Source: Escherichia coli (lineage in GTDB: Bacteria; Pseudomonadota; Gammaproteobacteria; Enterobacterales; Enterobacteriaceae). Taken from it: a stretch of 64,000 bases of DNA. Position 1 is the first letter of the stretch; each line of letters starts with the position of its first letter. Location: assembly GCF_041886205.1 (NCBI RefSeq), contig NZ_CP169029.1. The stretch is one strand, 5' to 3'. A program made the translations under genes and the position numbers. The notes below the pieces were generated by a model, which was given only the letters and a program-made list of their open reading frames with translations, had not been told where the DNA came from and did not search any database. This document shows, in pieces, positions 17,185-24,459 of the stretch.

Positions 17185-17223
17185 TGCTAACGTCAGATTG
17201 TTGACAAAGTGCGCGTCGTTCAT

Positions 17224-17323
17224 GCCGGATGCGGCGTGAACGCCTTATCAGGCCTACAAAAATCTTGTCAATTCAATATATTGCAGGATCACGTAGGCCT
17301 GATAAGCGTAGCGCATCAGGCAG
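17224..17323. repeat. REP/BIME element (two inverted REP units) between fepA and entD
   Basis: gccggatgcggcgtgaacgccttatcaggcctac and the inverted partner gtaggcctgataagcgtagcgcatcaggca. Confidence 0.85.
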
Positions 17324-17358: not shown

Positions 17359-17979
17359 ATGAAAACTACGCATACCACCCTCCCCTTTGCCGGAAATACG
17401 CTGCATTTTGTTGAGTTCGATCCGGCGAGTTTTTGTGAGCAGGATTTACTCTGGCTGCCACACTACGCGCAACTGCAACACGCTGGACGGAAGCGCAAAG
17501 CCGAACATTTAGCCGGACGAGTCGCCGCCGTTCATGCTTTACGAGAGTATGGTTTGAAAGGCACACCTGCAATTGGTCGTCATCGCCAGCCTGTCTGGCC
17601 TGCGGAGGTATACGGCAGTATTAGCCACTGCGGGGCTACGGCATTGGCCGTGGTATCCCGTCAACCGATTGGTATTGATATCGAAGAAATTTTTTCTGCG
17701 CAAACAGCGACCGAATTGACAGACAACATTATTACACCAGCAGAACACGAGCGACTCGCAGACTGCGGTTTAGCCTTTTCTCTGGCGCTGACACTGGCAT
17801 TTTCCGCCAAAGAGAGCGCATTTAAGGCAAGTGAGATCCAAACTGATGCAGGTTTTCTGGACTATCAGATAATTAGCTGGAATAAACAGCAGGTCATCAT
17901 TCATCGTGAGAATGAGATATTTGCTGTGCACTGGCAGATAAAAGAGAAAATAGTCATAACTCTGTGCCAACACGATTAA
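17359..17979 (+). CDS. entD: phosphopantetheinyl transferase EntD
   Basis: MKTTHTTLPFAGNTLHFVEFDP...; 206 aa from the ATG at 17359 (alternative ATG at 17350 gives MVDMKTT); the 256 aa track ORF is an extension across the REP element. Confidence 0.85.
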   Translation: MKTTHTTLPFAGNTLHFVEFDPASFCEQDLLWLPHYAQLQHAGRKRKAEHLAGRVAAVHALREYGLKGTPAIGRHRQPVWPAEVYGSISHCGATALAVVSRQPIGIDIEEIFSAQTATELTDNIITPAEHERLADCGLAFSLALTLAFSAKESAFKASEIQTDAGFLDYQIISWNKQQVIIHRENEIFAVHWQIKEKIVITLCQHD

Positions 17980-18089
17980 TTGACCACATCTGGTACGATT
18001 CGCCCGCAGCCATCACTGACCGCGGGCGAAAGTGTAAAGCAGGTGCCTTACCACCCTGACCTGACAACCGGATATGCGGGGATTACTCC

Positions 18090-19428
18090 CATAAGCGCTA
18101 ACTTAAGGGTTGAACCATCTGAAGAATGCGACGCCTCGGTGCCTCGTTAAGACGATGCCTCGCGTTCTTCAATTGCGTTTTGTAGGCTGTCAGGGATACT
18201 GTCCCACGAATGGCCACCTGTAAGCTCCAGATGACCATTTTTGTTATTCTCCACAACGAGTTAGTTCTTCTTTTCGGATCCGGCACTTCTGGGGGGGAAA
18301 TCCAGCGATGGCTGGATTATGTCGTCAATTAAAAATGCGGCGAGTAGATTAGCAAATATCCACGCTTTCGCGAGTTCAGGTTCCTTTGCACGCAAAGCAT
18401 CCAGGTGCAGCAAACTTTTGAGCCGCTTAAAAGCCAGTTCAATTTGCCATCGCAGACGGTAACAATCAGCCACTTGCTCTGCTGAATATTCATCTTCCGG
18501 TAATGATGTTAGCAATAGCACATGGCCCGCTGCTTCCAGCGTTTCCGCCTGAACTACTCGTCCTTTTCGACGATTCTCGCTGAGCAGTCGGGTTTTACTG
18601 ATTAATGCTTTTTCGGGAGGAAGTGATACGGCAATGAGACGTGCCGGAAAGGGAGCTCCGGCTTTTTTATTACCTGAATTGCCTATCATTACAGTGGTTT
18701 CACCGTTCTTACCGCAATCCAGCCCGCGCAGAAAACCCATCATGTCAAAGCGCATTCCTTCTGCAGTTAACCAGCGCAATCCTCGCCAGTGAACCCGGAC
18801 GATATAATCAGCTTCTCCAAAAGCAAGTGAGCGGATACATTCGGGACGCGAACCGAATCCCCGGTCAGCAATGCGTATCTCGTCTGCCGTTTGCGCAAAT
18901 CGGTCCAGCCGTTCAGCGTCTCTGCTGTCGGTTAGCTCAAAATCAGTGAACTGACAGGTATGAGGATCATATCCCATATGTAGTCGCCATTCAGCGCTGC
19001 CGCCCCCGGGCGCACTGATTGCTGTTCCATCGACAAGACGCAATCTCTTTCCGCTTGTACAACCCGTAACTGCGGCGCGTACAGCAAGTGTTTGTGCGGC
19101 AAGTATGCCAAACCAGTCGGCGGCATTCCGCAGCCGCTTCAGGAGAGCCACGTCAGATAATGTTGCAACGTCATGGAGCTGAGCCCATGCAGTGACTTCA
19201 CGTAATGACATCCCCCCGGGGCCGTAAGCCAGCCCCAGACGTAGCAGAGTTGCAGCATCACGAATTTCGCGGCGGCGGGTTAGAGCCCCGGCATTACGTG
19301 CCGAAGTATCCAGTTCTTCGGGCTTACCAATATGGGCCAGAATTGCTGACCAGTTATCGTGAGAGTAATTCATCGGCACGTTAAATCATATCAGGCGTAA
19401 TACCACAACCCTTAAGTTAGCGCTTATG
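18090..19428 (-). mobile_element. IS186 (IS4 family), copy 1, complete; transposase on the minus strand
   Basis: Terminal inverted repeats cataagcgctaacttaagggttg (18090-18112) and caacccttaagttagcgcttatg (19406-19428); flanked by direct repeats ggattactcc (18080-18089 and 19429-19438); boundaries accurate to about 1 bp. Confidence 0.92.
18261..19373 (-). CDS. insL: IS186 transposase
   Basis: ORF MNYSHDNWSAILAHIGKPEELDTSARNAG...; 370 aa from the internal Met, the track ORF starts two codons earlier at 19379. Confidence 0.93.
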   Translation of the reverse strand: MNYSHDNWSAILAHIGKPEELDTSARNAGALTRRREIRDAATLLRLGLAYGPGGMSLREVTAWAQLHDVATLSDVALLKRLRNAADWFGILAAQTLAVRAAVTGCTSGKRLRLVDGTAISAPGGGSAEWRLHMGYDPHTCQFTDFELTDSRDAERLDRFAQTADEIRIADRGFGSRPECIRSLAFGEADYIVRVHWRGLRWLTAEGMRFDMMGFLRGLDCGKNGETTVMIGNSGNKKAGAPFPARLIAVSLPPEKALISKTRLLSENRRKGRVVQAETLEAAGHVLLLTSLPEDEYSAEQVADCYRLRWQIELAFKRLKSLLHLDALRAKEPELAKAWIFANLLAAFLIDDIIQPSLDFPPRSAGSEKKN

Positions 19429-19850
19429 GGATTACTCCCCGCACAGCGGCTACTTCTTCGGTTCGTAAGCGAGAACAGCCTTAAACTCAATATTACGTTC
19501 CTTTACCGTAAACTCACACAACGAGTCTCCGACCAGAAGCGTAAATCCCAGCACCGTCAAACACAGCACTATGACTGCCACAAGGGCATATTTCGTCAGC
19601 ATGTTTATATTGCCTCCATGCGAAGAAGGGACTACCATCCGAGTTGTTGAGGTTCGGAGTGGCAGCCCCAGGATTGATAGAAATTTCTCCTGGGGCTTCA
19701 TCTTTCCAGACCTCAGAGTTAACCTGAAACCGGAAAGCTTCAGGCACCCGCCGTTATCTTACCCTTCCTTAGCAAAATAGCTGTTTATTTATACAGTGAG
19801 TCCTGTTTCGGACTTCTGTCAGCAAAACTCATCATTGCTCTTAAAACGAA
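19429..19850 (-). other. hok/sok-type type I toxin-antitoxin module, copy A (hokE coding region plus upstream mok/sok leader); its 3' UTR is separated by IS186 copy 1
   Basis: Contains the hokE ORF with GGAGG Shine-Dalgarno, an in-frame upstream ORF (19450-19701) and an overlapping out-of-frame ORF (19514-19747) as mok candidates; the 3' hairpin segment now lies at 18000-18089. Confidence 0.7.
19450..19602 (-). CDS. hokE: Hok-family membrane toxin HokE, copy A
   Basis: 50 aa [50 protein letters not shown]; single transmembrane helix typical of Hok/Gef; stop codon 21 bp from the IS186 end. Confidence 0.9.
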
Positions 19851-19941
19851 ATCGCCCGCAGCCATCACTGACCGCGGGCGAAAGTGTAAAGCAGGTGCCT
19901 TACCATCCTGACCTGACAACCGGATATGCGGGGATTGCTCC

Positions 19942-21280
19942 CATAAGCGCTAACTTAAGGGTTGTGGTATTACGCCTGATATGATTTAACGTGCCGATGA
20001 ATTACTCTCACGATAACTGGTCAGCAATTCTGGCCCATATTGGTAAGCCCGAAGAACTGGATACTTCGGCACGTAATGCCGGGGCTCTAACCCGCCGCCG
20101 CGAAATTCGTGATGCTGCAACTCTGCTACGTCTGGGGCTGGCTTACGGCCCCGGGGGGATGTCATTACGTGAAGTCACTGCATGGGCTCAGCTCCATGAC
20201 GTTGCAACATTATCTGACGTGGCTCTCCTGAAGCGGCTGCGGAATGCCGCCGACTGGTTTGGCATACTTGCCGCACAAACACTTGCTGTACGCGCCGCAG
20301 TTACGGGTTGTACAAGCGGAAAGAGATTGCGTCTTGTCGATGGAACAGCAATCAGTGCGCCCGGGGGCGGCAGCGCTGAATGGCGACTACATATGGGATA
20401 TGATCCTCATACCTGTCAGTTCACTGATTTTGAGCTAACCGACAGCAGAGACGCTGAACGGCTGGACCGATTTGCGCAAACGGCAGACGAGATACGCATT
20501 GCTGACCGGGGATTCGGTTCGCGTCCCGAATGTATCCGCTCACTTGCTTTTGGAGAAGCTGATTATATCGTCCGGGTTCACTGGCGAGGATTGCGCTGGT
20601 TAACTGCAGAAGGAATGCGCTTTGACATGATGGGTTTTCTGCGCGGGCTGGATTGCGGTAAGAACGGTGAAACCACTGTAATGATAGGCAATTCAGGTAA
20701 TAAAAAAGCCGGAGCTCCCTTTCCGGCACGTCTCATTGCCGTATCACTTCCTCCCGAAAAAGCATTAATCAGTAAAACCCGACTGCTCAGCGAGAATCGT
20801 CGAAAAGGACGAGTAGTTCAGGCGGAAACGCTGGAAGCAGCGGGCCATGTGCTATTGCTAACATCATTACCGGAAGATGAATATTCAGCAGAGCAAGTGG
20901 CTGATTGTTACCGTCTGCGATGGCAAATTGAACTGGCTTTTAAGCGGCTCAAAAGTTTGCTGCACCTGGATGCTTTGCGTGCAAAGGAACCTGAACTCGC
21001 GAAAGCGTGGATATTTGCTAATCTACTCGCCGCATTTTTAATTGACGACATAATCCAGCCATCGCTGGATTTCCCCCCCAGAAGTGCCGGATCCGAAAAG
21101 AAGAACTAACTCGTTGTGGAGAATAACAAAAATGGTCATCTGGAGCTTACAGGTGGCCATTCGTGGGACAGTATCCCTGACAGCCTACAAAACGCAATTG
21201 AAGAACGCGAGGCATCGTCTTAACGAGGCACCGAGGCGTCGCATTCTTCAGATGGTTCAACCCTTAAGTTAGCGCTTATG
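19942..21280 (+). mobile_element. IS186, copy 2, complete; inverted relative to copy 1
   Basis: Same 23 bp terminal inverted repeats at 19942-19964 and 21258-21280; flanked by direct repeats ggattgctcc (19932-19941 and 21281-21290); transposase protein identical to copy 1. Confidence 0.92.
19997..21109 (+). CDS. insL: IS186 transposase
   Basis: 370 aa, identical in protein sequence to the copy-1 transposase. Confidence 0.93.
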   Translation: MNYSHDNWSAILAHIGKPEELDTSARNAGALTRRREIRDAATLLRLGLAYGPGGMSLREVTAWAQLHDVATLSDVALLKRLRNAADWFGILAAQTLAVRAAVTGCTSGKRLRLVDGTAISAPGGGSAEWRLHMGYDPHTCQFTDFELTDSRDAERLDRFAQTADEIRIADRGFGSRPECIRSLAFGEADYIVRVHWRGLRWLTAEGMRFDMMGFLRGLDCGKNGETTVMIGNSGNKKAGAPFPARLIAVSLPPEKALISKTRLLSENRRKGRVVQAETLEAAGHVLLLTSLPEDEYSAEQVADCYRLRWQIELAFKRLKSLLHLDALRAKEPELAKAWIFANLLAAFLIDDIIQPSLDFPPRSAGSEKKN

Positions 21281-21301
21281 GGATTGCTCCCCGCACAACG
21301 G

Positions 21302-21454
21302 CTACTTCTTCGGTTCGTAAGCGAGAACAGCCTTAAACTCAATATTACGTTCCTTCACCGTAAACTCACACAGCGAGTCGCCGACCAGAAGCGTAAATCC
21401 CAGCACCGTTAAACACAGTACTATGACTGCCGCAAGGGCATATTTCGTCAGCAT
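21302..21454 (-). CDS. hokE: Hok-family toxin HokE, copy B (V8A variant)
   Basis: [50 protein letters not shown]; 6 nucleotide differences from copy A, one non-synonymous; IS186 copy 2 lies 21 bp after the stop and IS150 71 bp before the ATG. Confidence 0.88.
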
Positions 21455-21551
21455 GTTTATATTGCCTCCATGCGAAGAAGGGACTACCATCCAAATTGTT
21501 CAGGTTTGGGTAGGTAGCCCTAGGGTGTACTGACCCCAAAAAGTTGGACAG

Positions 21552-22403
21552 TTAAACACGAGGCATATAGGTCTGATTCCGATATTCAATTGGAGTCAGA
21601 CCTTTTAATTTCAGGCTAATTCTTCTGCTGTTGTAGTATTCAATATATTCCGTAACAGCATCCTTCAGTTCGCTTATATTACTGAACTCATCAAGATAAA
21701 AACACTCCGACTTTAAGGTTCCAAAGAAACACTCCACCACAGCATTATCCAGACAATTGCCTTTTCTGGACATGCTTTGTTTAATACCATGTTCTTTAAG
21801 GATATTTTGATATCTTCTCATACGATACTGCCATCCCTGGTCAGAGTGCAGAACAGGATGCTCGTGAGGATTAAGCTTTTTGAATGCCTGATCGAGCATA
21901 TTCTCAACCATGTTCATCACTGGTCTTTCCGAAAGGCTGTAAGAAATAACTTCATTGTTGAAGAGATCTATTACTGGAGACAAATACAGCTTGCGCCCAT
22001 TGACTGCAAATTCAGTAACATCGGTAACCCACTTCTCGTTTGGCCGCGTAGCCTTGAAATCTCTTTGGAGAACATTGGGGGCGGTTTGCCCTACCTCTCT
22101 TCTGTAAGAGCGGTATCGCTTGACCTTAATCGCTGCCTTAAGTGAGAGGGTTCCCATCAGGCGCTGAACAGCTTTATGGTTAATCTGTTTCCCTTCTCGA
22201 TGAAGAGACAGCGTTACCCTACGGTATCCGTATCGGCCTCTATTCTCATGATAAATCTCACCAATACGCTTTTTAACGCCCGCATACTTGTCAGGCTTGC
22301 TGAGAGCCTTTAGATGGTAATAAAACGTACTGCGCGGTATCTCCGCAGCCCTGAGAAGCTCATCAAGAGGATAAAACTGCCTTAGCTCGTTGAGTACTTT
22401 CAC
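21552..22403 (-). CDS. insK: IS150 OrfB (transposase catalytic part, DDE)
   Basis: 283 aa [32 protein letters not shown]... Confidence 0.92.
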
Positions 22404-22921
22404 TTTTTCGTGGGATGAGCTAAGGCTTTCAGCTTTTTTAGATACACAAGCCGCGTTTCAAGAAATCGAACTTGCCTTTCAAGATCCTCAATGCGTCGGT
22501 CTTTTGACAGCTCCAATGCTGATGCCGCTTTTTCTGGATCAACTGATATTGCAATGTTTCTTTTGGTGCCAATCTTGAGCGCGCGTAAACCAGCTTCTCC
22601 GCGATCTTCATAAACCTTCAGCCACCTGGCTACAGAACCACTACCAGCAAGCATAAAGTGAGCAGCAGCCTGATTAAGGGACATGTGCTGCTCGATCACA
22701 GCTTTCACGACCTTAATACGCAACTCTGGATCAGCACTAACGCCTTTAGGTTTGGGAATTAAACCTTTTTCTCCATGTTTTTCATAGAGGGCAACCCATG
22801 TCCTGACCTGGGTTCGGGGGACACCAAAACGTGCCGAGATGATCCTGTAACCATCATCAGTTGTGAAGTAGTGATTCACGACTTCAAGGCGCTTTTCAAA
22901 AGGGTATTTTGGCTTTGACAT
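22400..22921 (-). CDS. insJ: IS150 OrfA (helix-turn-helix DNA-binding part)
   Basis: 173 aa MSKPKYPFEKRLEVVNHYFTTDDGYRIISARFGVPRTQVRTW. Confidence 0.92.
   Translation of the reverse strand: MSKPKYPFEKRLEVVNHYFTTDDGYRIISARFGVPRTQVRTWVALYEKHGEKGLIPKPKGVSADPELRIKVVKAVIEQHMSLNQAAAHFMLAGSGSVARWLKVYEDRGEAGLRALKIGTKRNIAISVDPEKAASALELSKDRRIEDLERQVRFLETRLVYLKKLKALAHPTKK
22433..22439 (-). other. IS150 programmed -1 ribosomal frameshift heptamer A-AAA-AAG
   Basis: Minus-strand AAAAAAG lies in the orfA zero frame as CTA-AAA-AAG, 33 nt upstream of the orfA stop, where the orfB frame overlaps. Confidence 0.75.
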
Positions 22922-23331
22922 ATTAGGGGCTATTCCATTTCATCGTCCAACAAAATGGGTGCAGTACAGGGTTGATAGAAATATCTCCTGGGGCTTCATC
23001 TTTCCAGACCTCAGAGTAAACCTGAAACCGGAAAGCTTCAGGCACCCGCCGTTATCTTACCCTTCCTCAACAAAATAGCTGTTTATTTATACAGTAAATC
23101 CTGTTTCGGACTTCTCACTCCTCATTTAATCAACTGAAGCTGAACCCGTTTTTTCTGCATGCCTCAATCGTCAAAATTCTTCGCCGCCAGCCAGCTAAGA
23201 CGCAACTGGTCACATTGCAAAAGTAGCCAAATTACTTCAGTCACCATCACCAAAAAAAAGAAACATTCCAGAACTTCCGCATCTCGCCCAGCCGCTCCCA
23301 CTTCTATACTGAATGGAAAACGCCAACATAA

Positions 23332-24459
<1,128 letters not shown>

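Follow-up and report, generated by a model that had tools for sequence, protein, structure and literature searches.

The DNA analysed here is a 64,000-nucleotide stretch of Escherichia coli sequence (contig NZ_CP169029.1; hereafter the window) that carries two copies of the Hok-type toxin gene hokE. When the RefSeq annotation of matching loci was mapped onto the window, the region corresponded to the entD-ybdK chromosomal interval of E. coli, and both copies were named hokE in that annotation. No complete RefSeq genome gave a 100% match to the 5.4-kb region; the best value was 99.0%. The locus is flanked on the left by entD (17359-17979, plus strand) and on the right by ybdK (23341-24459, plus strand), both of which also appear in the list of open reading frames (ORFs). 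A comparison of the window with itself revealed a head-to-tail repeat of a hokE/sokE transcription unit of about 480 bp. Unit 1 comprises 18000-18089 and 19429-19817, while unit 2 comprises 19852-19941, 21281-21525 and 22969-23115, and a 34-bp spacer (19818-19851) lies between them. Each unit is laid out as a promoter, a leader with an antisense Sok gene, a 50-codon hok ORF, a GC hairpin, an fbi element and a terminator. Three insertion sequences (ISs) interrupt this arrangement.

Both hokE ORFs are found on the minus strand and are intact, with a length of 153 nt. Copy 1 (19450-19602) encodes a protein of 50 aa with a valine at residue 8, identical to WP_000956465.1. Copy 2 (21302-21454) encodes a 50-aa protein with an alanine at this residue, identical to WP_000956455.1 and to the HokE protein of K-12. 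The Pfam model PF01848 (HOK_GEF) matched residues 5-46 over model positions 1-42 of 42 (E = 2.5e-8), which places the peptide in the Hok/Gef family. The NCBIfam Hok models gave E values of 1e-10 to 1e-13, yet these matches stayed under the curated cut-offs.

The initial annotation had described six differences between the two ORFs, five of them synonymous, and this was confirmed. The change at nt 23 (GTG/GCG, V8A) is nonsynonymous; those at nt 36, 45, 75, 82 and 99 are synonymous, and five of the six are transitions. Using the Nei-Gojobori method, we obtained proportions of synonymous (pS) and nonsynonymous (pN) differences of 0.134 and 0.009 for this pair, corresponding to a dN/dS of about 0.06. 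The excess of silent changes gave P = 0.0045 in a plain binomial test and P = 0.016 in a simulation that kept five transitions and one transversion. When the same six changes were read in the two other frames, the ratios of synonymous to nonsynonymous changes were 3:3 and 2:4, showing that the silent excess is specific to the hok frame.

Self-comparison delimited two copies of IS186, each 1339 bp long. Copy 1 (18090-19428, minus strand, also in the RefSeq annotation as IS421 family) has a 372-aa transposase ORF at 18261-19379 and the target duplication GGATTACTCC; copy 2 (19942-21280) lies in the opposite orientation on the plus strand and has the target duplication GGATTGCTCC. IS186 belongs to the IS4 family and carries the RefSeq name IS421. 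Both copies show inverted ends (CATAAGCGCTAACTTAAGGG), the 372-aa ORF and exact 10-bp duplications (18080-18089/19429-19438 and 19932-19941/21281-21290). The insertion site in each case is a GGGG-N6-CCCC hairpin beginning a few bases past the hok stop codon, a pattern said to match the IS186 consensus target of SaiSree et al. 2001. The third element is a 1443-bp IS150 of the IS3 family (21526-22968, minus strand; self-comparison and RefSeq annotation). Its orfA (22400-22921) and orfB (21552-22403) encode 173 and 283 aa, it is flanked by a 3-bp GGG duplication, and the same element is annotated in loci L001-L003 of the comparison set.

The target duplications of IS186 match within each copy but differ between the copies, and the orientations are opposite; the two elements were therefore inserted independently into hokE units that had already diverged. 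A recent tandem duplication of a unit already carrying IS186 was rejected on these same grounds. We also considered a composite transposon, with inverted IS186 copies flanking hokE-1. This was rejected as well, since IS-free genomes are colinear with the segment between the two elements, and each IS186 is flanked by a matching target duplication of its own.

Depending on the strain, IS186 occupies these same hairpins in one orientation or the other (loci L003, L004, L006 and L019 among them). Junction queries against 5426 complete E. coli genomes, the set used for all genome counts below, found IS186 abutting a hokE-type hairpin in up to 1905 genomes for one orientation and up to 1058 for the other. 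Both numbers are maxima, as they may include junctions at hokC or at plasmid hok genes. Given the insertions at the same sites in reversed orientations across strains, the hokE GC hairpin looks like a recurrent insertion hot spot for IS186. It has previously been reported that hok/sok loci are insertion hot spots for mobile elements (bioRxiv 10.1101/527788). In E. coli VE-T9 (L002), which has a single hokE, IS186 is flanked by the unequal 10-bp repeats GGAGCAATCC and GGAGTAATCC (hok sense), in which the copy-2-type and copy-1-type hairpins are combined. Such hybrid repeats suggest that one hokE unit was lost in that strain by recombination between two IS186 copies or hairpins.

As a result of the IS186 insertions, both ORFs in the window are cut off from their fbi elements and terminators (18001-18049 and 19853-19901). 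The detached 3′ end of the hokE-1 unit (18000-18089, minus strand), which is 98% identical to 19852-19941, contains a terminator-type hairpin at 18001-18028 and the fbi element at 18042-18049, and ends in the left target duplication. In IS-free genomes, its counterpart follows directly 3′ of the hokE stop codon. The corresponding segment of the hokE-2 unit (19852-19941, minus strand; self-comparison) contains an intrinsic terminator (19852-19881), fbi (19894-19901) and, again, the left target duplication. In the predicted fold of the reconstructed IS-free hokE mRNA of 408 nt, nt 1-8 (GGGUGCCU) pair with nt 353-360, which in this model corresponds to the characteristic tac-fbi lock of hok mRNAs. 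The IS186 site corresponds to mRNA nt 309-327, between the stop codon (nt 300) and fbi. This pairing is lost in the window as it stands: because 1339 bp of IS186 part each ORF from fbi and the terminator, a contiguous transcript could not form the predicted lock.

The leader and promoter region of hokE-1 (19603-19817, minus strand) matches the Rfam sok/hok-leader family RF01794 with 80.2 bits at 19594-19749, above the gathering score of 59, and copy 1 thus has a structured leader with a Sok gene. The 5′ end of the hokE-1 mRNA, with the tac element, is placed at about 19749. Upstream ORFs in frame with hok start at 19638 and 19701, giving extended ORFs of 62 and 83 aa in the ORF list. These are mok-like and may represent a candidate mok frame coupled to hok translation. 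The antisense RNA gene sokE-1 (19646-19705, plus strand) was located by transferring the coordinates of K-12 sokE (b4835) relative to the hokE start codon. Its 5′ recognition tail (about 19646-19672) is followed by a terminator hairpin; judging from this hairpin and the U-tail, sokE-1 is apparently intact. An ORF annotated in RefSeq as ‘hypothetical protein’ runs antisense over the hok start and leader (19571-19780, plus strand), with equivalents in L004, L009 and L010 (e.g. WP_009008364.1). As the annotation of many strains marks this ORF as partial or frameshifted, a genuine gene is improbable here.

The leader of hokE-2 is split by IS150. Its proximal part (21455-21525, minus strand) contains the Sok-2 promoter and the first 28 nt or so of Sok-2 (21498-21525, plus strand), after which the IS truncates this gene. 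The distal part with the promoter (22969-23115, minus strand; tac at 23040-23047) is 95% identical to 19669-19817. RF01794 gave 63.7 bits at 22892-23047 and only 23.7 bits for the proximal piece. The leader element of copy 2 is thus not intact, and hokE-2 is parted from its promoter and distal leader.

We compared the window with strain ET201, in which the locus is IS-free. With the three ISs spliced out, the two sequences are colinear, with 24 mismatches in 9477 bp. Within the hokE region (about 1 kb) a single mismatch was observed, at window position 21521 and outside the ORFs. The window has a private T here on the plus strand (G-to-A in the hok sense), which creates a mismatch in the Sok-2 terminator/hok leader stem beside IS150. 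ET201 carries both window ORF alleles in identical form. In addition, strain MB53, which has both IS186 copies and lacks IS150, differs from the window at four of 6819 bases. As the same two alleles are present in IS-free ET201, all six ORF differences predate the IS insertions. No ORF substitution has taken place since then, and the 5:1 ratio is therefore uninformative on the period after insertion.

To place the pair among other alleles, the ORF was searched by BLAST in 20 genomes and 37 metagenome contigs. This gave 79 hokE copies, of which 75 were full-length and ungapped, one was frameshifted, two were truncated and one was cut by a contig end; the ORF was intact in 75 of the 78 copies that are complete within their contig. 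The 75 intact ORFs represent 27 DNA alleles, with 17 synonymous and 14 nonsynonymous changes, and nine of the latter are singletons. A neutral model with the transition bias seen in the data predicts 9.9 synonymous changes out of 31 (P = 0.006), and the mean pairwise pN/pS was 0.13. The other two frames gave ratios of 7:24 and 9:22. When changes were counted by tandem position, with later loci added, we obtained 13:6 for the entD-side and 12:6 for the ybdK-side copies. These data moderately support purifying selection on the Hok peptide in the species, at both tandem positions.

The decayed copies come from gut metagenomes. In one contig, 2 bp (TG) are inserted and the frame is shifted (L044, 541-695), and two contigs share a truncation after codon 16, followed by unrelated sequence (L040, 3084-3133; L041, 145-194). 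Codon 46 (TAC; window 19465-19467 and 21317-21319, within 19462-19476 and 21314-21328) does not vary among the 75 intact ORFs, nor does its CTTACGAA context, and no variable site lies between nt 126 and 141. In K-12 hokE mRNA this codon is subject to A-to-I editing, yielding Cys (PMC12214031).

The tandem arrangement was followed with a 114-nt inter-unit query, which can be covered only where the junction between two units exists. At least 80% of it was covered in 2102 of the 5426 genomes, so that a tandem pair with the 34-bp spacer is present in at least 2102. The IS-free junction of entD, hairpin and hokE was searched with a reconstructed query and was covered in one piece in at least 2839 of the 5426 genomes. 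This figure is a minimum, since coverage does not exceed 79% in strains where an island separates entD from hokE. Tandem pairs free of ISs were annotated in ET201, O157:H7, M10, 8479, Trh52, ECO_2_R and ST131, and single IS-free hokE copies were also found. Outside E. coli, tandem pairs occur in E. whittamii and in Escherichia sp. MOD1-EC7003, of a cryptic Escherichia lineage; E. albertii and Escherichia sp. E1V33 have single copies. The two-copy form is thus an old tandem pair that is common across E. coli. The initial annotation had called selection unexpected for loci regarded as decayed. This was not borne out: with so many IS-free junctions, the IS-broken state belongs to particular lineages, and purifying selection at the level of the species is to be expected. 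In some lineages (L016, L017, L057 and L058, e.g. ST131) an island takes the place of entD immediately upstream of the tandem pair. It encodes a sugar ABC transporter and SDR oxidoreductases, and its left border is found where the hokE-1 terminator region ends.

The two copies do not evolve independently. The V8A difference is not bound to position, as AREA_505 and ST131 have Ala8 on the entD side and Val8 on the ybdK side. Moreover, in two genomes both copies share derived residues: Ala17 and Arg25 in one, Ala8 and Arg41 in the other (E. whittamii, L061, and the GTDB E. coli representative, L060). This indicates concerted evolution of the tandem pair in L061 and L060. Because the copies recombine and undergo gene conversion, also between strains, ‘after duplication’ is not a clean clock.

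The leader had also been described as much more diverged than the ORF. This holds for the ORF as a whole: the shared proximal leader of the window pair (72 nt up to the IS150 junction) has 10 differences, or 13.9%, against 3.9% in the ORF. It does not hold against the silent sites of the ORF, and divergence of the leader beyond neutral was rejected (10/72 versus 5/37 synonymous sites, Fisher P = 1.0; Sok tail alone 9/35 versus 5/37, P = 0.24). Nucleotide diversity (pi) was 0.011 in the last 40 nt before the ATG, which include the Sok promoter and the hok ribosome-binding site, 0.016 in the Sok hairpin, 0.031 in the ORF and 0.023 in the 3′ UTR. From -72 to -41, where the Sok 5′ tail and its target lie, it reached 0.146, near the synonymous diversity of the ORF (about 0.10). 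Because one stretch of base pairs encodes both Sok and its target, the two would stay complementary through any change. The Sok tail segment would thus be able to drift freely, unlike the constrained remainder of the unit.

At least 14 discrete haplotypes were distinguished in this hypervariable segment (-75 to -41 upstream of the hok ATG). Of 21 tandem pairs, 16 have two different Sok tail haplotypes and five are identical in ORF and tail. A strict rule of insulation, by which co-resident copies always differ in their Sok tails, fails on these five, although some of them are metagenome assemblies and could be repeat collapses. The tail diversity might reflect selection for Sok RNAs that do not cross-react, such that neighbouring hokE copies would be regulated independently. 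We consider this rather unlikely; the alternative is a lack of constraint.

Taken together, we consider it highly probable that the two ORFs are old haplotypes derived from intact, selected units, which were later hit independently by IS186 and then by IS150, and that both loci are now structurally crippled. Following the hok/sok paradigm, the full-length hok mRNA of an intact unit would be held inert by pairing of its 5′ tac and 3′ fbi elements. Trimming of the 3′ end would let the mRNA refold, and Sok would then block the upstream mok frame, to which hok translation would be coupled; without Sok, the membrane toxin would be made. The two alleles would have evolved in such units under purifying selection on the peptide, which would have produced the 5:1 silent excess. 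Recent, independent insertions of IS186 into the GGGG-N6-CCCC hairpin of each unit would then have cut fbi and the terminator from both ORFs, and an IS150 insertion would next have disrupted the leader of copy 2 together with its Sok gene. The window ORFs would still be intact because too little time has passed for decay.

The initial annotation had proposed that both toxin ORFs stayed under purifying selection after duplication. Its core stands for the species, where the 75 ORFs point to selection on the Hok frame, but it does not extend to this strain or to a clock set by the duplication. If selection still kept both ORFs in this genome, the IS-disrupted loci would have to make a useful Hok peptide. 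Both ORFs are intact, the promoter, leader and Sok gene of copy 1 look intact, and hokE is expressed elsewhere: in K-12, where IS186 has hit hokE in the same way, the gene is still transcribed and shows 40% A-to-I editing (PMC12214031), and hokE, together with hokD, has been reported as highly expressed in the E. coli B strain REL606 (PMC3446290). The expression in these two strains also weighs against our own reading, so that ‘crippled’ describes the regulatory architecture here, without implying that absence of the peptide is proven. On the other hand, IS-free ET201 has exactly these alleles and no ORF substitution followed the insertions; in copy 2, IS150 lies between the ORF and its promoter and leaves the Sok gene truncated; and frameshifted and truncated hokE copies exist elsewhere. 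Ongoing maintenance in this strain is therefore unlikely in our view.

It is hardly credible that sampling chance, in pseudogenes drifting neutrally, gave rise to the silent excess. There are only six sites, and the transition-aware P value is not overwhelming, but the independent population data agree in direction (17:14, with 9.9 of 31 expected), nonsynonymous variants there are mostly singletons, nearly all complete copies are intact and the excess is specific to the hok frame. We regard it as very improbable that the constraint acts on RNA secondary structure or on an overlapping frame instead of on the protein. Such a constraint would fit the highly structured nature of hok mRNAs, the stronger conservation of non-coding parts of the unit compared with synonymous sites, and the low synonymous divergence from E. 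albertii. However, structure would not concentrate changes at third codon positions in a single frame, most of these changes alter an amino acid when read in the two other frames, and the only long upstream ORFs on the hok strand are in frame with hok. Several further points count against the reading of old, selected haplotypes in crippled loci. The selection signal rests on few sites, singletons from low-coverage metagenome contigs may be sequencing errors, and the metagenome search was conditional on an exact match to a 42-mer that includes ORF nt 1-22. There is also constraint on the synonymous sites, with a pS between E. coli and E. albertii of only 0.16-0.19, which is low for this species pair, and the selection ratios are therefore approximate. 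In addition, a simple consensus scan of 19400-19960 did not find a sigma-70 promoter.

These results show that a silent excess between paralogues in one genome does not equal ongoing selection when the alleles were inherited unchanged from intact ancestors. They also correct the K-12-centred view of hokE as decayed, because species-wide this type I toxin-antitoxin module is usually intact and often present in duplicate. Beyond correct annotation the finding has little import, and the diversity of the Sok tails and the recurrent targeting by IS186 are more notable than the 5:1 ratio.

Outside the hokE locus, the spacer between fepA and entD matched the Rfam family ES036/CssrF at 17259-17300 on the plus strand (39.8 bits; gathering score 37.6) and gave a weak naRNA4-like match at 17213-17254 on the minus strand. 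The matches within 17213-17300 are probably RNA motifs derived from repeat elements.

The finding is already known in kind, since the IS186 lesion of K-12 hokE, hok islets and the RefSeq annotation of both copies as hokE are on record. Among its closest counterparts is K-12 hokE/sokE (b4415/b4835), which lies at the same entD/ybdK site with sokE in the same position. There, IS186 is inserted in the same hairpin with the same type of target duplication, and the protein is that of window copy 2. In contrast to the single unit of K-12, the window has two in tandem, with the second IS186 in the opposite orientation and IS150 in the second leader. K-12 hokE/sokE with IS186 downstream was reportedly described by Pedersen and Gerdes in 1999. 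A secondary citation treats K-12 hokA, hokC and hokE as inactivated by ISs (PMC12214031).

The locus shares with hok/sok of plasmid R1 a Hok/Gef toxin, an RF01794 leader, the predicted tac-fbi pairing and a cis-antisense RNA over the region upstream of hok. It differs from this post-segregational killing system in being chromosomal and in having its 3′ elements removed by IS186; moreover, its mok-like frame is in frame with hok, with no out-of-frame overlap. According to a review in a 2025 preprint (bioRxiv 10.1101/2025.08.07.668861), the chromosomal genes hokA, hokB and hokC, when tested, did not mediate post-segregational killing. The preprint also describes Hok ‘islets’ of 2-6 hok genes within 2 kb, which hold 10% of Hok genes and which the window pair resembles as a local tandem duplication of one hok type. 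The hokE pair, its IS186 and IS150 lesions and the Sok-tail haplotypes are not singled out in the portion of that survey considered here. It does report that HokE is toxic when overexpressed, the gene cloned from MG1655 or strain LR27 DNA being among the toxic controls.

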